From UHGV virus genome UHGV-0105382: DNA of 10,501 bases; one strand, 5' to 3'. The translations under genes and the position numbers were made by a program. Source of the DNA: a virus. Shown piece by piece: positions 908 through 10,451 of the stretch; the stretch's first letter is position 1, and each line of letters begins with the position of its first letter. Below the pieces are notes generated by a model. It worked only from the letters and a program-made list of their open reading frames with translations, did not search any database and was not told where the DNA came from.

Positions 908-1615
908 ATGGATTTGAATAAATTCGATGAGCCATTCAGCCCTGAAGATATCGAATGGCGAATACAGCAAAGCGGTAAAACACGCGATGGCAAAGTGTGG
1001 GCTATGGTGCTGGCTTATGTCACGAACCGGGCAATCATGAAACGCCTGGACGATGTTTGCGGCAAAGCAGGATGGCGCAATGAATACCGCGATATTCCCA
1101 ACAACGGCGGCGTTGAATGCGGCATATCAATCAGGATTGATTCCGAATGGGTAACCAAATGGGATGCTGCTGAAAACACGCAGGTAGAAGCCGTCAAAGG
1201 TGGTCGTTCCGGTGCAATGAAGCGCGCTGCCGTTCAGTGGGGAATCGGTCGGTATCTGTATAACCTTGAGGAAGGTTTCGCACAAACATCTCTCGATAAA
1301 AAGCAGGGGTGGCACAGGGCAAAACTGAAGGATGGAACAGGATTTTACTGGCTCCCTCCATCGCTGCCGGGCTGGGCAATGCCAGTATCAGATAACAAAC
1401 CATCACCAGAAAATACCAACCAGAAATCTCCATCGGTTGACTGCGAGCAAATCCTGAAAGACTTCAGCGATTATGCGTCAACAGAAACTGACAAGAAAAA
1501 ACTCATCGAGCGTTATCAGCGTGACTGGCAATTAATGGCTGGCAATGAGGATGCGCAGGCTAAATGCGTTCAGGTAATGAACATCAGAGTTAACGAGCTA
1601 AAACAGGCGGCATAA
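908..1615 (+). CDS. Rad52-like single-strand annealing protein (phage recombinase, Sak/Rad52 type)
   Basis: TGAGGTG RBS at 897-903. Translation carries a Rad52-type core (GWRNEY...GGVECGISIRIDSEW...KRAAVQWGIGRYLYN), comparable to the Rad52 KRSLRGFGNALGNCLY region. Stop is directly followed by the SSB start (TAAATG). Confidence 0.75.
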   Translation: MDLNKFDEPFSPEDIEWRIQQSGKTRDGKVWAMVLAYVTNRAIMKRLDDVCGKAGWRNEYRDIPNNGGVECGISIRIDSEWVTKWDAAENTQVEAVKGGRSGAMKRAAVQWGIGRYLYNLEEGFAQTSLDKKQGWHRAKLKDGTGFYWLPPSLPGWAMPVSDNKPSPENTNQKSPSVDCEQILKDFSDYASTETDKKKLIERYQRDWQLMAGNEDAQAKCVQVMNIRVNELKQAA

Positions 1616-2119
1616 ATGGCAAGCAGAGGCGTAAATAAGGTGATCATTATTGGTCGCCTTGGGCATGATCCAGAAATCAGATATTCACCATCAGGAACGG
1701 CATTTGCAAACCTTACAGTTGCTACGTCAGAACAGTGGCGTGATAAGCAAACTGGAGAGAAAAAGGAGCAGACGGAGTGGCACCGTGTGGTAATGAGCGG
1801 GAAACTGGCAGAAATTGCCAGCGAATATCTGCGAAAAGGCTCTGAGGTTTATCTTGAAGGCAAATTGCGGACAAGAAAATGGCAGGATCAAAGCGGACAG
1901 GATCGGTTCACTACCGAAATCATCGTGGGCGTTGGTGGAACTATGCAAATGATTGGTGGCAAGCAAGGAGGCAATGAACAGTCTTCACCTCAGCGAAATA
2001 ACGGTCAGCAACCTCAGCAGCAAGGGAATCACAGCGAACCACCTATGGATTTTGACGACGATATCCCCTTTGCACCAGTAACTCTCCCCTTCCCTCGTCA
2101 CGCTATTCACGCAATTTAA
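1616..2119 (+). CDS. ssb: Single-stranded DNA-binding protein (phage SSB) with a C-terminal extension past the DDDIPF tip
   Basis: N-terminal OB fold nearly as in E. coli SSB ([16 protein letters not shown]...TEWHRVV...), Gly/Gln-rich linker, conserved MDFDDDIPF motif, then 15 more residues ([15 protein letters not shown]) before the stop. Confidence 0.9.
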
Positions 2120-2127
2120 GGACTTAC

Positions 2128-2676
2128 ATGAATCACTTGATGGTTGACCTTGAAACAATGGGCAACGGGCCATACGCGCCAGTTATTTCTATTGGGGCGG
2201 TATTCTTTGACCCGAATACCGGAGAAACAGGAGAAGAGTTCTCGGTAAATATCTCGCTTGAGTCATCAATGCGATATCGGGCGCGTCCTGACGCTTCAAC
2301 GATTTTATGGTGGATGGAACAGAGTGAAGAAGCCAGAAAATCGCTAACCAGCAACACTCAGGAGCTTTCAACGGCTCTTTCATGGTTATCTGAATTCATC
2401 ATAAAGAACGCTAACCACAAATTCGTTCAGGTTTGGGGGAATGGAGCATCATTTGACTGCGTTATTCTCCGAAACAGTTATTCGCTGACAGGGCAGCCAG
2501 TTCCGTGGCAGTGGTGGAATGACCGCGACGTAAGAACAATCGTCGAGCTTGGAAAGGTAATAGGATTCGACCCTAAGCGAGATATGCCATTCAAAGGAAC
2601 TCGCCACAACGCGCTTGATGATGCCATCCACCAAGCCAAATACGTTTCAGCAATCTGGAAAAAATTAGCTCAATAA
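2128..2676 (+). CDS. DEDDh-family (DnaQ-like) 3'-5' exonuclease
   Basis: All three exonuclease motifs are visible: Exo I (MVDLETMG), Exo II (WGNGASFDCVIL) and Exo III (HNALDDAIHQ). AAGGA RBS sits just upstream of the ATG. Confidence 0.8.
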   Translation: MNHLMVDLETMGNGPYAPVISIGAVFFDPNTGETGEEFSVNISLESSMRYRARPDASTILWWMEQSEEARKSLTSNTQELSTALSWLSEFIIKNANHKFVQVWGNGASFDCVILRNSYSLTGQPVPWQWWNDRDVRTIVELGKVIGFDPKRDMPFKGTRHNALDDAIHQAKYVSAIWKKLAQ

Positions 2677-2692
2677 TCAACAGGAGAAAAAC

Positions 2693-2986
2693 ATGCCAGC
2701 GCCTCTGTATGGTGCGGATGACCCGCGCCGCTGTTCCGGCAAATCCGTATCGGAGGTGCTGGATAAATTCAGAAAAAACTACGACCTGATAATATCGCTA
2801 CCGAAGGAAACGAAAGAGGAAAAGGAATTTCGCCATTGTATATGGCTTGCAGAGAAAGAAGAACGCGAGCGAATTTACCAGACATCAATCCGACCATTCC
2901 GCAAAGCCGCATATACCCACTTCCCTGAAATTGACCCGCGTCTGCGTAATTACCGCTCACGCTATGGCGCTATCAGTAATGACTGA
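2693..2986 (+). CDS. Hypothetical protein (97 aa)
   Basis: AGGAG at 2683-2687, ATG at 2693. No recognisable motif. Basic and Glu-rich. Confidence 0.6.
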   Translation: MPAPLYGADDPRRCSGKSVSEVLDKFRKNYDLIISLPKETKEEKEFRHCIWLAEKEERERIYQTSIRPFRKAAYTHFPEIDPRLRNYRSRYGAISND

Positions 2987-2996
2987 GGAATTAACA

Positions 2997-3287
2997 ATGA
3001 AAACAATGAAGCTAAACATCGGCCTCGGCAAATACGTTATTACCGGAACCAAACACGACCTGATTCTTAGCGAAAGAGGAATTATCAAAGAAGGCGAGAA
3101 TGCAGGGAAAGAAACACTAAGCCGTATCGGTTATTACAGCAAGTTTGAGCATCTGGTTAAAGAGTTATGCAACCGTGAACTCCTGTTATCTCAGGCGCAG
3201 ACGCTACAGGATATTCAGCAGCATATCGAGACATTAGGTGTGTCACTTAGCATGGCTATTGACCAGTTCGTTGAGAGTAAATCATGA
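2997..3287 (+). CDS. Hypothetical protein (96 aa)
   Basis: GAGGA at 2985-2989, ATG at 2997 (MKTMKLNIG...). The track's longer ORF from 2847 overlaps the preceding gene in another frame and has no RBS, so the internal start is preferred. Confidence 0.6.
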
Positions 3288-3451
3288 GAGGACTTGCATA
3301 CAATCCCGGCATTCTTCCGGCAGAAATGATTATTCGCCAACGCGTAAAGCCAATGCCATCGAGAGAGGAATTGCTTAAGAGAAAGAGTTTCGGTTCTGTT
3401 AATGACAACAAATATCTGAATGCGATGTTGCGCAAAGGAGGCAACCAATGA
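3284..3451 (+). CDS. Hypothetical small basic protein (55 aa)
   Basis: Not in the supplied track (under 60 aa). ATGA overlaps at both ends (3284-3287 and 3448-3451) and it exactly fills the gap between neighbours. Translation [55 protein letters not shown]. Confidence 0.4.
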
Positions 3452-3801
3452 GCAAGATTGACTATCAGGCACTGCGTGAAAAGGCAGAGAAAGCAACGTG
3501 TGGTGTGTGGTCGCTCGAATATGGAGAGAGCCGATTTGATTGTGATGATGCGCTAATTCATCGTGACGTTGTTGGATATCTTCCCATTTGCAGAATTGAA
3601 GGAGCGCATCCTGAAAGCGGTTTCGATGAAGATTTCCAAATGGAACAGCAGGCCAATGCTGAATTCATCGCCGCAGCCAATCCGGCTACTGTGCTGGCAC
3701 TACTGGATGAAAACGAAAGACTGTGTCGCGAGCTGATAGCTCGTAATGGTGAGATTGAAGGGCTTCGGAAGTGGGCAGAAGAACGGGAGATGCAACCATG
3801 A
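3448..3801 (+). CDS. Ead/Ea22-like protein (117 aa)
   Basis: AGGAGG at 3436-3441. N-terminal module ([18 protein letters not shown] ... [24 protein letters not shown]) recurs in the next gene and matches my recollection of the Ead/Ea22-like family of lambdoid early-left regions. Confidence 0.65.
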
Positions 3802-4727
3802 TGACTTTTACCAGCGAACAATTAGCTACCTTACGTAAGATAGCGCAACAGGCAACACAGGGCGAATGGCGTGCATTCATCTCGCCGGACACTGGTACAT
3901 ATGCGGTGCATACGCCGGGGGATGAACGTTGCGGAGACATTATCAAATGGCCTGGCTTTGACGACCAGAAAAATGCAGAGAACAACGCAGAATTTATCGC
4001 AGCTTTCAACCCTAAATTAGTGCAGACACTGCTGGATGAACGGGAAAGAAACCAGCAATACATCAAATCACGCGACCAGGAGAACGAGGATATTGCGCTA
4101 ACGGTAGGGAAGCTGCGCGTTGAGCTTGAGGAGGTGAGAGCAAAACTCAATGAACAACGCGAGTATTACGAGGGAGTAATCGCGGATGGAAGGAAGCACA
4201 TAGCAGAACTGGAAAAACAATGCGCCGAATGGGAGCGAAAAGCATTAAGCAACTTTGAAGAGTGTGCTGCGATGGCTGAACGTATCGAAGAGATGCAGAC
4301 AAAATCTGCACCAGATTCGTTTGGCATCATCGGTGAAAATATTCGAACACAGGATAATCGAATAACGTCAGATCCTATGTTTTGTGTGTATCAAAAGCGC
4401 GAAATCGTTGTTGATGCTGATTATGACTATGACCGGATTGTCTGGGTTGATGAAGATGGCAATGAAGCCAATAAACTCCAAAGTCGTCGTCTCGAACTAC
4501 TTCATGAAAACTTTCGGGAGCCACCAGAAAAATGGCGGCGCGTTGCTGTGAAAGATATTGATGAATTCGTTACCTGCTGTTTCACCGAACAGGGTTGTAA
4601 AGACTACCTGGCAGCCAATGGTCACAATCTTCGCTTGCCATTTATATATGTAAAAAGCGGTTTCAGGAACGCTGAATATATCGGCATAAGAAACTGGCTT
4701 GCTGGTATTCGCATCAAAGGAGACTGA
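3798..4727 (+). CDS. Ead/Ea22-like protein, long form (309 aa) with coiled-coil middle and distinct Cys-containing C-terminal domain
   Basis: GGGAGA at 3785-3790, ATG at 3798 overlapping the previous stop (ATGATGA). N-terminal module (EQLATLRKIAQQATQGEW ... NNAEFIAAFNPKLVQTLLDERER) is paralogous to the preceding gene. The track's GTG start at 3771 is less likely. Confidence 0.7.
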   Translation: MMTFTSEQLATLRKIAQQATQGEWRAFISPDTGTYAVHTPGDERCGDIIKWPGFDDQKNAENNAEFIAAFNPKLVQTLLDERERNQQYIKSRDQENEDIALTVGKLRVELEEVRAKLNEQREYYEGVIADGRKHIAELEKQCAEWERKALSNFEECAAMAERIEEMQTKSAPDSFGIIGENIRTQDNRITSDPMFCVYQKREIVVDADYDYDRIVWVDEDGNEANKLQSRRLELLHENFREPPEKWRRVAVKDIDEFVTCCFTEQGCKDYLAANGHNLRLPFIYVKSGFRNAEYIGIRNWLAGIRIKGD

Positions 4728-4728
4728 T

Positions 4729-4938
4729 ATGGCTATTGCCGCAAGTTACACCATGCATCTCTATTGTGATTGTCGCCAGTGTACGGAAGGTGTATATCCA
4801 GTGCCAGACTTCGGTGAGTATATCGGTACGTCATGGTCTGGTTGTGCAAAAGAGGCCCGTAAAGACGGGTGGCGAATAAGCAAAGACAAAACACGTACTT
4901 TTGCGCCCGGGCATAAAGTTTTGAGGATTAACACATGA
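4729..4938 (+). CDS. Hypothetical Cys-rich small protein (69 aa, C-x-C-x2-C ... C; possible zinc ribbon)
   Basis: AAGGAGA at 4717-4723, ATG at 4729. Stop overlaps the next start (ATGA at 4935-4938). Motif HLYCDCRQC plus a later WSGC. Confidence 0.55.
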   Translation: MAIAASYTMHLYCDCRQCTEGVYPVPDFGEYIGTSWSGCAKEARKDGWRISKDKTRTFAPGHKVLRINT

Positions 4939-5708
4939 CCACTATTACCAAAGAACGTATTGAATTGTTCATTAAAAATCCGCTTGAAAACGGGCTTACT
5001 CGTGGCGAACAAATGGAACTGGCACGAATTGCACTGGCATCACTGGAACGCGAACTGATTCGCCACGAGCATGCCAAATGGTCTGACTCCACATTTGGCT
5101 GCGTTGGCCCCATTGGTCCACTGAAACACCTCTCAAAAGAGGCTCTGGAAGCCGCAGCCGAACCAGACGATCTCAGCGAGTGGGCTGATATGCATTTCCT
5201 GTTGTGGGATGCACAGCGCCGTGCTGGCATCAGCGATGCTGAAATTACCGCTGCTATGGAAGATAAATTGAAGATCAACATGGAGCGCCAGTGGCCTGAA
5301 CCAAAAGATGGTGAGCCTCGCTTGCACATTAAAGAACCCGGCAACTCTCCGGTAATTCCGGATGGTTTATCCACGGTATGCGCTGAGGCTTATCAGGTTG
5401 TAGGAGTTATGGCAGATGCGCTTGGTGTATTCGGTGATGCAGCAGTACAGAAAGTTCTGGATAACCTGTCACAGCAAAAACTTGTTCACAGAGATGTGCT
5501 GCCGTTCTCGCTTCCGGTAACTCCGGATGGTTGGATAAGCTGTAGTGATCGAATGCCGAACGACGCGCAGTGGTGCGTAGTGAACACAGAATACGGGTAT
5601 TACGTGCAATGCTGGTCTGAAGGTCAAGGGTGGCTTGGTGATGATATCAGCATCCCTAAATGCGATGTAATCAATTGGATGCCTCTACCAGAACCGCCGC
5701 AGGGGTGA
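4935..5708 (+). CDS. Two-domain prophage protein: N-terminal DUF550-type (dATP/dGTP pyrophosphohydrolase-like) domain and C-terminal DUF551 domain
   Basis: GAGGA at 4923-4927. The C-terminus (GWISCSDRMP...WCVV...DVINWMPLPEPPQG) matches the DUF551 signature as I recall it (W..[SC].DRLP ... W ... HWMPLPEPP). The N-terminal half (EWADMHFLLWDAQRRAGISDAEITAAMEDKLKINMERQWPEP) resembles the MazG-like pyrophosphohydrolase domain often fused to DUF551. Family names are from memory. Confidence 0.7.
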   Translation: MTTITKERIELFIKNPLENGLTRGEQMELARIALASLERELIRHEHAKWSDSTFGCVGPIGPLKHLSKEALEAAAEPDDLSEWADMHFLLWDAQRRAGISDAEITAAMEDKLKINMERQWPEPKDGEPRLHIKEPGNSPVIPDGLSTVCAEAYQVVGVMADALGVFGDAAVQKVLDNLSQQKLVHRDVLPFSLPVTPDGWISCSDRMPNDAQWCVVNTEYGYYVQCWSEGQGWLGDDISIPKCDVINWMPLPEPPQG

Positions 5709-6135: not shown

Positions 6136-6303
6136 ATGCACTTCCGAGTCACAGGTGAATGGAATGGAGAGCCATTCGACAGGGTTATCGAAGCAGAGGA
6201 CATCAACGACTGCTATAACCACTGGATGATATGGGCGCAGATAGCGCATGCAGACGTAACCAATATTCGAATTGAAGAACTGAAAGAACACCAAGCCGCC
6301 TGA
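6136..6303 (+). CDS. Hypothetical small protein (55 aa)
   Basis: Not in the supplied track (under 60 aa). GGAG at 6125-6128 seven nt before the ATG. Translation MHFRVTGEWNGEPFDRVIEAEDINDCYNHWMIWAQIAHADVTNIRIEELKEHQAA. Stop codon lies in the loop of the next terminator. Confidence 0.45.
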   Translation: MHFRVTGEWNGEPFDRVIEAEDINDCYNHWMIWAQIAHADVTNIRIEELKEHQAA

Positions 6304-6316
6304 TGGCGGTTTTTTC
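6293..6316 (+). terminator. Putative intrinsic terminator (stem GCCGCC / GGCGG(T), loop TGAT, then TTTTTT)
   Basis: Seen in sequence: GC-rich 5-6 bp stem followed by T6, directly upstream of the cII-box/xis region. Confidence 0.55.
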
Positions 6317-6352
6317 TTGCGTGTAATTGCGGAGACTTTGCGATGTACTTAA
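6317..6352 (+). promoter_or_regulatory. pI-like cII-dependent promoter (TTGC-N6-TTGC box overlapping the xis start)
   Basis: TTGC at 6317-6320 and 6327-6330 with a 6-nt spacer, the direct-repeat architecture of lambda cII sites. The surrounding sequence (TTGCGTGTAATTGCGGAGACTTTGCGATGTAC) matches what I recall of the lambda pI/xis region. Confidence 0.5.
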
Positions 6353-6561
6353 CACTTCAGGAGTGGAACGCACGCCAGCGGCGCCCAAGAAGCCTTGAAA
6401 CAGTTCGTCGATGGGTACGCGAGTGCAGGATATTCCCTCCTCCGGTTAAGGATGGAAGAGAGTATCTGTTCCACGAATCAGCGGTAAAGGTTGACTTAAA
6501 TCGACCAGTAACAGGTAGCCTTTTGAAGAGGATCAGAAATGGGAAGAAGGCGAAGTCATGA
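6343..6561 (+). CDS. xis: Excisionase Xis (lambda-type, 72 aa)
   Basis: Translation MYLTLQEWNARQRRPRSLETVRRWVRECRIFPPPVKDGREYLFHESAVKVDLNRPVTG... is essentially the lambda Xis sequence as I recall it. GGAG at 6331-6334. 3' end overlaps the int start as in lambda. Confidence 0.95.
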   Translation: MYLTLQEWNARQRRPRSLETVRRWVRECRIFPPPVKDGREYLFHESAVKVDLNRPVTGSLLKRIRNGKKAKS

Positions 6562-7612
6562 GCGCCGGGATTTACCTCCTAACCTTTATATAAGAAACAA
6601 TGGATATTACTGCTACAGGGACCCAAGGACGGGTAAAGAGTTTGGATTAGGCCGAGACAGGAGGATAGCAATCACTGAAGCTATACAGGCCAACATTGAG
6701 TTACTCTCAGACAGCGGACGCAAATCACTGATAGACAGAATTAAAGGCGGTGACGCAATCACTCTTCATGTGTGGCTTGACCGATATGAAAGAATCCTCA
6801 CCGAAAGGGGGATCAGGCCGAAAACTCTACTCGACTACGCCAGCAAAATCAGGGCAATCCGAAGAAAATTGCCGGACAAACCGCTCACTGACATATCAAC
6901 GAAAGAAGTGGCAGCAATGCTAAACACCTACGTAGCAGAAGGTAAAGCAGCTTCCGCAAAATTAATCAGGTCAACCCTTGTTGACGTTTTTCGTGAAGCA
7001 ATAGCCGAGGGGCATGTGGCAACGAATCCGGTAACAGCAACCCGTACAGCAAAGTCAGAAGTAAGGCGCTCAAGGCTGACAGCTAATGAGTATGTCGAGA
7101 TTTACCATGCAGCCGAACCTCTCCCTATCTGGCTAAGGCTGGCGATGGATTTGGCCGTCGTTACAGGGCAGAGAGTCGGCGATTTGTGCAGAATGAAATG
7201 GTCAGACATAAACGACAACCATCTTCACATTGAACAGAGTAAAACAGGGGCTAAACTCGCCATTCCGCTAATGCTAACGATTGACGCGCTCAATATCTCA
7301 TTGGCTGATACACTACAGAAATGCAGGGATGCCAGCAGCAGTGAAACTATAATCGCATCAAAGCATCACGATCCGCTTTCCCCGAAAACAGTATCAAAGT
7401 ATTTTACAAAGGCGAGAAATGCATCTGGACTCTCATTTGATGGAAACCCGCCAACATTCCATGAACTGCGTAGCCTGTCAGCGAGGCTATACCGGAACCA
7501 GATTGGCGATAAGTTTGCTCAACGTCTTCTCGGGCATAAATCAGATTCAATGGCGGCGCGGTATAGGGACAGCCGTGGACGGGAATGGGACAAAATTGAA
7601 ATCGACAAATGA
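6539..7612 (+). CDS. int: Tyrosine integrase, lambda Int family (357 aa)
   Basis: N-terminal arm-binding domain matches lambda Int (MGRRRSHERRDLPPNLYIRNNGYYCYRDPRTGKEFGLGRDRRIAITEAIQANIEL). Catalytic residues are placed as in lambda (VVTGQRVGDL, HELRSLSARLY, LLGHKSDSMAARYRD, C-terminus REWDKIEIDK). The central core-binding region differs from lambda. Confidence 0.95.
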   Translation: MGRRRSHERRDLPPNLYIRNNGYYCYRDPRTGKEFGLGRDRRIAITEAIQANIELLSDSGRKSLIDRIKGGDAITLHVWLDRYERILTERGIRPKTLLDYASKIRAIRRKLPDKPLTDISTKEVAAMLNTYVAEGKAASAKLIRSTLVDVFREAIAEGHVATNPVTATRTAKSEVRRSRLTANEYVEIYHAAEPLPIWLRLAMDLAVVTGQRVGDLCRMKWSDINDNHLHIEQSKTGAKLAIPLMLTIDALNISLADTLQKCRDASSSETIIASKHHDPLSPKTVSKYFTKARNASGLSFDGNPPTFHELRSLSARLYRNQIGDKFAQRLLGHKSDSMAARYRDSRGREWDKIEIDK

Positions 7613-7706: not shown

Positions 7707-10451
7707 GTGAATTTAACCCTGACCCGAAGACTCTGGATGGGCTTTGCCCTGATGGCGCTGTTAACCCTGACCAGTACCCTGGTGGGATGGTACAACCTGC
7801 GCTTTATCAGCCAGGTGGAAAAAGACAACACTCAGGCATTGATTCCTACCATGAATATGGCGCGCCAGTTGAGCGAAGCCAGCGCCTGGGAACTTTTCGC
7901 CGCGCAGAACCTGACCAGTGCCGATAACGAAAAGATGTGGCAGGCGCAGGGGCGAATGCTCACCGCACAAAGCCTGAAGATTAATGCGTTGCTGCAAGCA
8001 TTACGGGAACAAGGTTTTGATACCACCGCTATTGAACATCAGGAGCAGGAGATCTCCCGTTCGTTACGTCAGCAAGGGGAACTGGTGGGACAGCGTTTGC
8101 AACTGCGCCAGCAACAACAGCGACTCAGTCAGCAGATAGTCGCCGCCGCCGATGAAATCGCACGCCTGGCGCAAGGTCAGGCGAATAATGCGGCAACTTC
8201 CGCCGGAGCGACCCAGGCCGGGATTTACGATTTGATCGAACAACATCAGCGTCAGGCCGCAGAAAGTGCACTCGATCGGCTGATTGATATCGATCTTGAG
8301 TATGTTAACCAGATGAATGAACTGCGCCTTAGCGCCCTGCGGGTGCAGCAAATGGTGATGAATCTGGGGTTGGAACAGATCCAGAAAAATGCGCCAACGC
8401 TGGAAAAGCAGCTCAATAATGCGGTGAAAATTCTGCAACGTCGGCAAATACGCATTGAAGATCCGGGAGTTCGTGCTCAGGTCGCAACAACGTTAACTTC
8501 CGTTAGCCAATATAGCGATTTGCTGGCGCTGTATCAGCAGGACAGTGAAATCAGCAATCGCCTGCAAACTCTCGCCCAAAATAACATCGCCCAGTTCGCG
8601 CAGTTTAGTAGCGAAGTCAGTCAGTTGGTCGACACCATTGAGCTGCGTAATCAGCACGGACTGGCGCATCTGGAAAAAGCCAGTGCACGCGGGCAATACA
8701 GCCTGTTATTGCTGGGGATGGTTTCACTTTGCGCACTGATTCTGATCCTCTGGCGCGTGGTTTATCGCTCAGTCACGCGTCCACTTGCCGAACAAACGCA
8801 GGCGCTGCAACGGCTGCTGGACGGTGATATCGACTCCCCTTTTCCGGAAACCGCTGGCGTGCGGGAGCTGGATACCATCGGGCGGCTGATGGATGCGTTT
8901 CGCAGCAGTGTTCATGCACTGAATCGCCACCGCGAACAGCTGGCGGCGCAGGTCAAAGCGCGTACAGCTGAATTGCAGGAGCTGGTGATAGAACACCGAC
9001 AGGCACGGGCGGAAGCAGAAAAAGCCAGCCAGGCAAAATCGGCGTTTCTGGCGGCGATGAGCCATGAGATCCGCACACCGCTGTACGGTATTCTTGGCAC
9101 CGCGCAACTGCTGGCAGATAACCCCGCACTTAATGCCCAGCGTGATGATTTGCGGGCAATTACCGACTCTGGTGAATCGTTGCTGACCATCCTCAACGAT
9201 ATTCTCGATTATTCGGCTATCGAAGCAGGCGGCAAGAATGTTTCGGTCAGCGATGAACCCTTTGAACCGCGCCCGCTGCTGGAAAGTACCCTGCAATTAA
9301 TGAGCGGAAGGGTGAAAGGTCGCCCGATTCGCCTGGCAACAGAAATTGCCGACGATGTACCGACTGCGTTAATGGGCGATCCGCGGCGTATTCGTCAGGT
9401 CATTACCAACCTGTTGAGCAACGCCCTGCGTTTTACTGACGAAGGACAGATCGTTTTACGTAGCCGCACTGATGGCGAGCAATGGCTGGTCGAAGTGGAA
9501 GACAGCGGCTGCGGTATTGATCCCGCGAAACTGGCTGAAATCTTCCAGCCATTTGTTCAGGTTAGCGGCAAACGCGGCGGCACCGGGCTGGGGCTGACCA
9601 TCAGTAGCCGTCTGGCCCAGGCGATGGGCGGCGAACTGAGCGCCACCAGCACGCCGGAAGTTGGAAGCTGTTTTTGTTTACGCTTGCCGTTACGTGTTGC
9701 CACTGCACCCGTGCCAAAAACAGTCAATCAGGCGGTGCATCTGGACGGTTTACGTTTGCTGTTAATTGAAGATAACCCGCTAACCCAGCGAATTACCGTT
9801 GAGATGCTGAACAACAGTGGGGCGCAGGTCGTTGCGGTAGGAAATGCCGCGCACGCAATAGAGACGTTGCAAAATAGCGAACCGTTTGCTGCCGCACTGG
9901 TGGATTTTGATCTGCCCGATATCGACGGCATTACGCTTGCCCGGCAACTGGCACAGCAATATCCGTCGCTGGTTTTGATTGGCTTTAGCGCTCATGTCAT
10001 CGACGAAACGTTGCGCCAGCGTACCAGTTCATTATTTCGCGGGATTATCCCTAAACCGGTGCCGCGTGAAGTGCTCGGTCAGTTACTGGCGCACTATCTC
10101 CAACTGCAAGTCAATAACGATCAACCGCTGGATGTATCGCAACTCAATGAAGATGCTCAGTTGATGGGGACGGAGAAGATCCACGAATGGCTGGCATTAT
10201 TTAAACAACATGCCCTGCCGCTTCTCGATGACATCGGCATCGCCCGCTCCAGCCAGAACAGCGAAAAAATAAAGCGTGCCGCACATCAGCTAAAAAGCAG
10301 TTGCTCGAGTCTGGGAATGCGTAGCGCCAGCCAGCTATGCGCACAACTGGAGCAGCAGCCATTATCTGCCCCCCTTCCACACGAAGAAATTACACGCAGT
10401 GTTGCCGCTCTGGAAGCATGGTTGAATAAGAAAGACCTGAACGCGATTTGA
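7707..10451 (+). CDS. torS: TMAO-responsive hybrid sensor histidine kinase TorS (914 aa from the GTG at 7707; 904 aa if started at the ATG at 7737)
   Basis: Translation matches E. coli TorS as I recall it ([22 protein letters not shown]...). Two transmembrane segments flank a periplasmic domain, followed by an H-box ([11 protein letters not shown], His codon 9063-9065), G-boxes (DSGCGI, GGTGLGL), a receiver domain (LLIEDNP; Asp codon 9903-9905 in [10 protein letters not shown]) and a C-terminal HPt (AAHQLKSS, His codon 10284-10286). Counting from the internal ATG these residues are His443, Asp723 and His850, the phosphorelay positions as I recall them for TorS. Confidence 0.95.

Follow-up and report, generated by a model that had tools for sequence, protein, structure and literature searches.

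A predicted abc2-DUF5405-DUF2737 gene trio in the recombination region of a lambdoid prophage

A lambdoid prophage (UHGV virus genome UHGV-0105382) carries in its left arm three consecutive small genes that were assigned by profile and sequence comparison to abc2, which encodes anti-RecBCD protein 2, and to the families DUF5405 and DUF2737. The window, that is the whole stretch of 10,501 nucleotides that was analysed, contains this left arm on the + strand, and the three open reading frames are called ORF1, ORF2 and ORF3 below (Table 1). Taken as a whole, the explanation that we consider moderately probable is that they form the promoter-distal end of the recombination/anti-RecBCD module of the prophage, within a long early-left operon, and that ORF2 and ORF3 are small accessory genes. 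The first-pass annotation had described the three as uncharacterised and as belonging to no family that it recognised, which does not hold: ORF1 corresponds to Abc2, ORF2 to DUF5405 and ORF3 to DUF2737, and the trio is already present in annotated phages as abc2 and two catalogued riders, an ordinary prophage cassette.

Table 1. Coordinates of features in the 10,501-nucleotide window, counted from its first nucleotide
Feature	Position	Strand	Description
Erf/Rad52-type annealing protein gene	908-1615	+	Pfam PF04098
SSB gene	1616-2119	+	NCBIfam SSB models
DEDDh 3'-5' exonuclease gene, Rv2179c/DnaQ-like	2128-2676	+	Pfam PF16473
Shine-Dalgarno sequence of abc2	2682-2686	+	AGGAG, six bases 5' of ATG at 2693
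ORF1, predicted abc2	2693-2986	+	97 aa
Shine-Dalgarno sequence of ORF2	2985-2989	+	GAGGA, overlaps abc2 stop codon; seven bases 5' of ATG
ORF2, predicted DUF5405 gene	2997-3287	+	96 aa
ORF3, predicted DUF2737 gene	3284-3451	+	55 aa
Ead/Ea22-like genes	3448-4727	+	Pfam PF13935, E 2.4e-20 and 3.5e-35
xis	6343-6561	+	product 98.6% identical to lambda Xis
int	6539-7612	+	product 75% identical to lambda Int
Host gene torS	7707-10451		adjoins prophage end

On the + strand, the recombination module is followed by Ea22-like and other accessory genes and then by xis and int. At most 76% of the window was matched at any single place in E. coli genomes, as is expected of a mosaic prophage. A further match, to PHROG 1097, was found within the recombination module (908..2676). 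The exonuclease encoded upstream of the trio is not lambda Exo; Pfam assigns it to the DEDDh 3'-5' enzymes of the Rv2179c/DnaQ-like type. The exonuclease encoded beside the DUF5405 gene of phage 186 was rejected as a relative of the window enzyme, with no detectable homology (E 0.53). In a survey of 325 lambdoid phages, the combination of anti-RecBCD protein, SSB, nuclease and annealing protein was described as the 'ES18' functional type (PMC12315714), to which the module in the window corresponds by its gene combination.

The gene order agrees with the placement given in the first-pass annotation, with a nuclease gene on one side and Ea22-like genes on the other. The same annotation had likened the trio to lambda orf60a/orf63/orf61, and this comparison stands for the map position, between the recombination genes and ea22, but not for homology: tblastn of the three lambda proteins against the whole window gave a best E >1. 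The families of the lambda genes are DUF1317 and DUF1382, and Pfam places the window ORFs elsewhere; in function, the lambda counterpart of ORF1 is Gam and none of these three.

The start of ORF1 lies 16 nt from the TAA of the exonuclease gene. ORF2 contains a second in-frame ATG at 3006, which is the start of most homologues (MKLNI... in a 26-sequence alignment), so the true product may be 93 aa long. The ATG of ORF3 overlaps the stop codon of ORF2 (ATGA at 3284-3287), and its stop codon overlaps the ATG of the first Ea22-like gene, which is coupled to it in the same manner (ATGA at 3448-3451, with AGGAGG before it at 3436-3441). The Shine-Dalgarno match of ORF3 itself is weak (GAGAG). Between 2600 and 3500, neither a sigma-70-like promoter nor a + strand terminator-like site was found. 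The three coupled same-strand ORFs that the first-pass annotation had reported, with their ribosome-binding sites or ATGA overlaps, were all recovered, including the smallest with its overlapping start and stop.

All three ORFs matched curated Pfam families above the gathering score, and hundreds of loci in phages and prophages contain intact orthologues. In close DNA variants, the variable columns at codon positions 1/2/3 numbered 32/27/62 for Abc2, 10/8/31 for DUF5405 and 15/16/34 for DUF2737. From the family matches, the intact orthologues and the excess at codon position 3, the three ORFs are judged to be real genes and not chance ORFs. That ORF3, ORF2 or both are untranslated, either as chance ORFs or as leader-like spacers separating abc2 from the Ea22-like genes, would be in keeping with the shortness of ORF3, its weak Shine-Dalgarno match and its low-confidence structure prediction, but is extremely improbable given the curated Pfam matches (well above threshold for ORF3, marginal for ORF2), the enrichment of variable sites at codon position 3, the conservation at protein level down to approximately 45% identity with an invariant motif, and the ATGA coupling that is kept in diverged loci. 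Conserved and intact frames in relatives, whose absence would have counted against the genes according to the first-pass annotation, were present in nearly all of approximately 260 loci. NCBIfam and PADLOC gave zero matches for the three proteins.

ORF1 matched the 97-position Pfam profile PF11043 (Anti-RecBCD_p2) with its residues 1-97 (E 4.5e-62, 206.7 bits, cutoff 25), PHROG 656 'abc2 anti-RecBCD' (E 5.3e-53) and, over its full length, P22 Abc2 in the PDB (8b1t_A, E 1.6e-56). It shares 88 of 97 identical residues (91%) with P22 Abc2, and Pro68 is conserved within the segment IRPFRK. The gene is located in the early-left recombination module, 3' of the annealing-protein gene, in the order Erf/Rad52-type gene, SSB, exonuclease, abc2. 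On the strength of these matches, ORF1 is identified as Abc2.

Abc2 is among the most thoroughly studied anti-RecBCD proteins of phages, and the complex of P22 Abc2 with RecBCD was solved by cryo-EM (PDB 8B1T/8B1U; Wilkinson et al., PMC9836394). Abc2 binds RecC, with the helicase remaining active, and leaves both the helicase and the nuclease activity of RecBCD largely intact (PMC9836394). Host PpiB is co-purified with the complex, and Pro68 is almost certainly engaged by the PpiB active site (PMC9836394). According to earlier work cited in the same study, the Chi response is lost with Abc2, which led to a model where Abc2 channels the products of RecBCD to the annealing protein of the phage (PMC9836394). 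RecC binding and loss of the Chi response were shown for P22 Abc2, and we infer them for ORF1 from the 91% identity. ORF1 would accordingly be expected to engage the host prolyl isomerase PpiB via Pro68 and RecBCD would be blinded to Chi, with the resected DNA being used not by RecA but by the phage annealing protein, here the Erf/Rad52-type product of the third gene upstream. In an assay of the HK620 recombineering module that left out its DUF2737 gene (hkaI), abc2 brought no stimulation, which counts as a negative hint.

ORF2 is assigned to DUF5405, the family of P2 Orf83 and Sf6 gp24, by its matches to PHROG 154 (E 2.9e-31, residues 1-95) and, marginally, to Pfam PF17399 (E 4.4e-5, 24.3 bits, cutoff 21.6). 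Using tblastn, near-identical copies were found in HK446, Sf6, HK140 and others, copies with approximately 65% identity in ES18 and Salmonella prophages, and copies with 32-44% identity in P2-like phages (P2 orf83), 186, N4-like Salmonella/Klebsiella phages and a T4-like Morganella phage. For the P2-like phages and 186, the identity was 32-34% over approximately 90% of the length (E 1e-8 to 9e-7). The Pfam description of DUF5405, as quoted in the supplement of an accessory-gene screen (10.1101/2023.04.06.535777), mentions a conserved Cys near the C-terminus. The sole Cys of ORF2 is C58 (KELCNRE), with none in the last 35 residues, whereas the P2 and 186 proteins have a Cys in ..KRCSEAF and ..FICEEAF, respectively; lacking a C-terminal Cys, the lambdoid DUF5405 proteins form a divergent subgroup.

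An AlphaFold2 model of ORF2, calculated from the 26-sequence alignment, had a pLDDT of 88.5 and a pTM of 0.72, and consists of four beta strands followed by two helices. Foldseek comparison against BFVD, a collection of predicted viral structures and the sole source of real structural matches to ORF2, retrieved annotated DUF5405 models at TM 0.76-0.85. The BFVD matches were all uncharacterised phage proteins, including those of phages of Bacillus, Lactobacillus and Cellulophaga, and a PDB sequence search returned nothing up to E 10. The model thus suggests a compact beta-alpha protein with a phage-only fold. The T5 PC4-like ssDNA-binding protein (4bg7), a weak Foldseek match, has a similar topology, with four strands and then a helix, but was rejected, both for lack of significance (TM 0.35, E 0.8) and because basic or aromatic surface residues are not what is conserved in ORF2. 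The "ORF83" anti-Avs protein of the EVADES preprint was discarded as a relative, being an unrelated Smf/DprA-like protein with a coincidental name.

PHROG 154 and the RefSeq product names in Sf6, HK446 and ES18 label the family as replication initiation proteins, and the P2 homologue orf83 sits directly 5' of replication gene A. The label appears to derive from this adjacency and not from experiment, and the phage 186 record for its DUF5405 gene reads 'unknown function; not essential'. ORF2 is a near-neutral protein (pI 6.8) of 96 aa, in which Pfam finds neither a DNA-binding nor a nucleotide-binding domain, and it lies in the recombination module, distant from the replication genes. Lambdoid replication genes belong to the early-right operon. 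A role of ORF2 in replication initiation is therefore very improbable.

ORF3 matched positions 1-51 of the 53-position Pfam profile PF10930 (E 1.9e-30, 104.9 bits, cutoff 25) and PHROG 1117 (E 3.7e-37), which identifies it by sequence as a DUF2737 member. Homologues are P22 Orf56, HK620 HkaI, HK97 gp38, Sf6 gp23 and HK446 gp28; P22 orf56 is the gene directly 3' of P22 abc2, and its similarity to ORF3 is clear by inspection. The family core P-M-P-S-R-E-E-L-L-x-R-N-S-F-x-S-V-N-x-N-K-x-L with a basic tail is present in ORF3. Diverged members have a variable N-terminus and a conserved C-terminal core with a basic tail after it, and R33, S35 and F36 are invariant among them, both in the alignment and in the family survey. 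DUF2737 has few members: among 1.84 billion representative proteins, a profile search gave 106 matches, many of them fragments, and a word-based search gave 166 clusters, of which all with a source name came from Escherichia, Shigella or Salmonella. Other enterobacteria were represented among the species-representative loci, a one-genome-per-species profile search that comprised 8 loci only. Long DUF2737 fusions (P0205-P0207) were dismissed as gene calls reading the abc2 3' end in another frame, or as deletion variants.

The peptide is basic (pI 10.7), and its AlphaFold2 model (pLDDT 66, pTM 0.23) was too poor for fold searches. A PDB sequence search with ORF3 gave nothing up to E 10. Such low confidence would fit a peptide that adopts its fold only when bound to a partner; in isolation, DUF2737 is probably disordered, with a conserved C-terminal motif that resembles a protein-binding segment. 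The homology and structure searches that the first-pass annotation had recommended yielded families for all three proteins and a confident fold for ORF2; this fold matches uncharacterised proteins only, and ORF3 could be modelled only at low confidence.

Conservation of the cassette was assessed in two samples of 80 IMG/VR loci, which consist mostly of closely related enterobacterial lambdoid phages and are neither phylogenetically independent nor deduplicated by phylogeny. In the sample anchored on abc2, DUF2737 followed directly 3' in 60 loci and with DUF5405 in between in 17 (77/80 in total), one of the three exceptions resembling a frameshifted copy. Among the best 80 loci anchored on DUF2737, abc2 was found 5' of it in 67, with a spacer of 10 nt in 52 and DUF5405 in between in 15. 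All 59 DUF5405 genes of the loci collection lay directly 5' of DUF2737. The order was kept in diverged loci, whose proteins are 23-40% (Abc2), 50-70% (DUF5405) and 51-61% (DUF2737) identical to those of the window and whose DUF5405 and DUF2737 genes retain the four-base stop/start overlap, and it was the same in Pseudocitrobacter and other species-representative genomes. Recurrence as a cassette in related prophages, which the first-pass annotation had proposed to check, is supported, with the full trio in HK446 and Sf6 and with abc2 and DUF2737, with or without DUF5405 in between, in these 77 abc2 loci. As regards the genes 3' of DUF2737, clustering by single linkage lumps coiled-coil Ea22-like proteins together.

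The origin of the trio is shown by the junction sequence. One and the same spacer, TGAGGAnTTnACnATG, follows abc2 in the window and precedes orf56 in P22; DUF5405 starts where the old start codon stood and ends in ATGA on DUF2737. DUF5405 is an optional gene, inserted singly and precisely where abc2 meets DUF2737. In loci without abc2, the gene 5' of DUF2737, or of DUF5405-DUF2737, mostly encodes an Abc1-like helix-turn-helix protein that belongs to the same PHROG 323 as P22 Abc1 and is preceded by RecT and a Mu-Gam-like gene, so that DUF2737 closes two non-homologous anti-RecBCD modules. Genes of a distant DUF2737 subfamily come after those for holin and lysozyme and have no abc2 less than 3.5 kb away, and the conserved motif is accordingly independent of an adjacent abc2. 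DUF5405 also occurs with neither DUF2737 nor abc2 in P2-like, N4-like and T4-like phages.

ORF2 and ORF3 are most likely small protein-binding accessory factors of early infection. Translated by coupling behind abc2, they would bind host (or phage) proteins as non-essential modulators. That they have stayed so tightly linked to anti-RecBCD genes over a long time points to this arena for them too, in which they would tune recombination and the RecBCD takeover or blunt defences that the takeover sets off. Such a role in the takeover, or in countering defences that sense it, is plausible as an inference; a target within the RecBCD/recombination arena, takeover-sensing defences included, we regard as possible and well short of probable, and targets unrelated to it are given roughly equal weight.

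The linkage may have a simpler cause, as ORF2 and ORF3 could be independent accessory genes (morons) with targets outside RecBCD and recombination, in other forms of host takeover or exclusion, adjacency to abc2 then reflecting physical linkage and shared ancestry in one phage group. The DUF2737 subfamily beside lysis genes would fit this, as would the scatter of DUF5405 over unrelated phage types and gene neighbourhoods, the 186 homologue recorded as not essential, and the clean insertion of DUF5405 as a single gene reusing an old ribosome-binding site, a typical trait of mobile accessory genes. Moreover, with spacers of 10 nt or overlapping ends, neighbours are rarely split by recombination and are likely to be co-inherited even without a functional link. 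On the other side, adjacency is kept at deep divergence (Abc2 down to approximately 20% identity) in early-left regions that are otherwise highly mosaic among lambdoid phages, and DUF2737 also ends the second, non-homologous module of RecT, Mu-Gam-like and Abc1-like genes. We consider independent accessory genes a possible but rather unlikely account. The stronger proposal that DUF2737, alone or with the DUF5405 protein, whose gene always overlaps that of DUF2737 by stop and start, is itself an unrecognised functional member of enterobacterial anti-RecBCD modules is doubtful. DUF2737 would then be either a third "abc" factor that tunes Abc2-RecBCD-PpiB or a counter-defence peptide that silences guards of RecBCD (OLD, retrons Ec48/Se72, Gabija-type sensors).

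In the searchable literature, there were neither experimental data nor an assigned function for DUF5405 or DUF2737. Recent work on HK446 concerns their immediate neighbours: gp33 of HK446/HK75, encoded where the module begins, sets off the abortive-infection nuclease P2 OLD, gp27 (Oad2), encoded directly 3' of DUF2737, inhibits P2 OLD defence, and the authors name the locus an anti-defence gene hotspot (bioRxiv 10.64898/2026.07.10.737580). A random-library screen of HK446 for OLD inhibitors yielded gp27 only, and not gp28 or gp29, the latter two thus not being stand-alone OLD inhibitors in that assay (10.64898/2026.07.10.737580). The accessory-gene screen quoted above, with Abc2 as a known control, found P22 Abc1 to trigger a P4-encoded cell-death response, and its supplementary tables place DUF2737 beside Abc2 in Salmonella prophages, those tables reporting no phenotype (10.1101/2023.04.06.535777). 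The general expectation of the first-pass annotation, that this region hosts host-takeover or anti-defence functions, is supported.

The presence in this prophage of a RecBCD hijacker of the Abc2 type, within a module of Erf, SSB, 3'-5' exonuclease and Abc2, amounts to routine annotation, and the novelty is low. The comparative pattern offers a modest, testable lead: DUF2737 and DUF5405 are tied to anti-RecBCD genes far more tightly than is usual for mosaic lambdoid genomes, and the stretch occupied by the trio is a recently identified hotspot for triggers and inhibitors of RecBCD-monitoring defences. This linkage and location make the two families cheap and well-defined candidates for experiment in tractable phages, among them P22, HK620, HK446 and Sf6.

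Among the closest known systems are the corresponding trios of HK446 and Sf6, at 94-98% identity. The HK446 products gp30, gp29 and gp28 are 95%, 98% and 94% identical to ORF1, ORF2 and ORF3, respectively, with the same order and couplings of their genes. The HK446 and window loci differ in their surroundings, with gp31 upstream and Oad2 (gp27) downstream in HK446, in place of SSB and exonuclease upstream and Ea22-like genes downstream in the window, where no Oad2/EaE homologue was found. Sf6 gp25-gp24-gp23 shares the order and couplings of the trio, and Sf6 also has the same upstream layout of Erf/Rad52-type gene, SSB, exonuclease and abc2. The DUF5405 proteins of P2 (Orf83) and 186 are of the same size as ORF2, homologous across nearly the full length, and the beta-alpha fold is common to DUF5405 members; their genes, however, occupy the early operon directly before replication gene A, outside any recombination module and with no DUF2737 gene behind them, and encode the C-terminal Cys absent from the lambdoid-type protein.

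In P22, abc2 is followed directly by orf56 (DUF2737). P22 Abc2 and ORF1 are alike in length (97 aa), in sequence, in having Pro68, and in the position of their genes 3' of an Erf-type gene in the early-left operon with a DUF2737 gene close behind. They differ (window residue, position, P22 residue) at K17N, I34M, K38Q, S65A, A73T, H75K, P77I, N86D and D97N, and the window module is without abc1 and arf, having SSB and the DEDDh 3'-5' exonuclease in their stead. P22 Abc1 resembles the two riders as a small, poorly understood accessory protein of the abc region, whose relatives replace abc2 5' of DUF2737, but it is a helix-turn-helix protein (Myb/sigma region 4-like) unrelated to ORF2 and ORF3. 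Lambda Gam is a functional analogue of ORF1/Abc2, as both target RecBCD; the two are non-homologous, Gam blocking the DNA-binding site of RecBCD and Abc2 binding RecC (PMC9836394).

The exonuclease gene directly upstream of abc2 was assigned to the DEDDh 3'-5' family by its PF16473 match; it is not a 5'-3' nuclease of the lambda Exo type. Phages encoding Abc2 are said to be without a nuclease of their own, RecBCD providing one, so that the pairing of abc2 with an adjacent 3'-5' exonuclease is unexplained. In phage 186 (L262, 2423-3279), a DnaQ-like gene annotated as 'DNA polymerase exonuclease subunit' lies directly upstream of a DUF5405 gene; homology of this exonuclease to that of the window was not detectable (E 0.53). 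The recurrent pairing of DUF5405 with a 3'-5' exonuclease gene may be coincidence.

Coordinates of features in the window
Feature	Coordinates	Strand	Details
gp33-like ORF, 57 aa	635-808	+	88% identity to HK446 gp33; PHROG 2123
DEDDh 3'-5' exonuclease, Rv2179c/DnaQ-like	2128-2676	+	PF16473, E 2.8e-73
Ea22-like ORF, 318 aa as listed	3771-4727	+	GTG start at 3771
dATP/dGTP pyrophosphohydrolase + DUF551 protein, 257 aa	4935-5708	+	PF04447, E 1.2e-41
Lambda-like integration module	6136-7612	+	lambdap35 homologue, Xis, Int
torS	7707-10451	+	adjoins prophage

Downstream of the trio, the listed Ea22-like ORF contains an in-frame ATG at 3798 that shares bases with the stop codon of the Ea22-like gene before it (ATGA, 3798-3801), so the chain of translational coupling probably extends into this ORF and its protein is probably 309 aa long. 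The gene at 4935-5708, in which the DUF551 domain is C-terminal to the PF04447 domain, adds to the accessory genes of the ea region and may function in the nucleotide pool.

The gp33-like ORF belongs to a family labelled 'recombinase'. According to a 2026 preprint (bioRxiv 10.64898/2026.07.10.737580), HK446 gp33 alone suffices to set off P2 OLD, an abortive-infection nuclease, and Oad2 (HK446 gp27) is the matching inhibitor. Oad2 is related to P22 EaE. As the window carries the gp33-like ORF and no Oad2 homologue, its prophage may be OLD-sensitive.

Identity to lambda in the integration module was 94.5% for the lambdap35 homologue, 98.6% for Xis and 75% for Int. Whereas lambda attB lies between gal and bio, the window prophage abuts torS, which suggests an altered site specificity of Int.

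Several public database proteins (P0205-P0207) that appeared to fuse other domains to DUF2737 were rejected as fusions; they contain the 3' end of abc2 read in the +1 frame (a stretch of 36 residues) and are gene-calling artefacts or deletion variants. DUF2737 was also found away from abc2. A distant subfamily, with the N-terminus MFDQYDYQQYG... and a 14-residue core kept, occurs at about position 3500 in each of the IMG/VR contigs L169-L179, among small ORFs that closely follow genes for holin-like proteins and lysozymes; within 3.5 kb no abc2 was present. In L020, L038, L043, L058 and about 30 further loci (1280-3000), abc2 is replaced in an alternative module that runs from RecT through a Sipho_Gp157/Mu-Gam-like gene and an Abc1-like gene to DUF2737 at its end, with or without DUF5405. 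The Abc1-like protein (104 aa, double helix-turn-helix) belongs to PHROG 323, as does Abc1 of P22.
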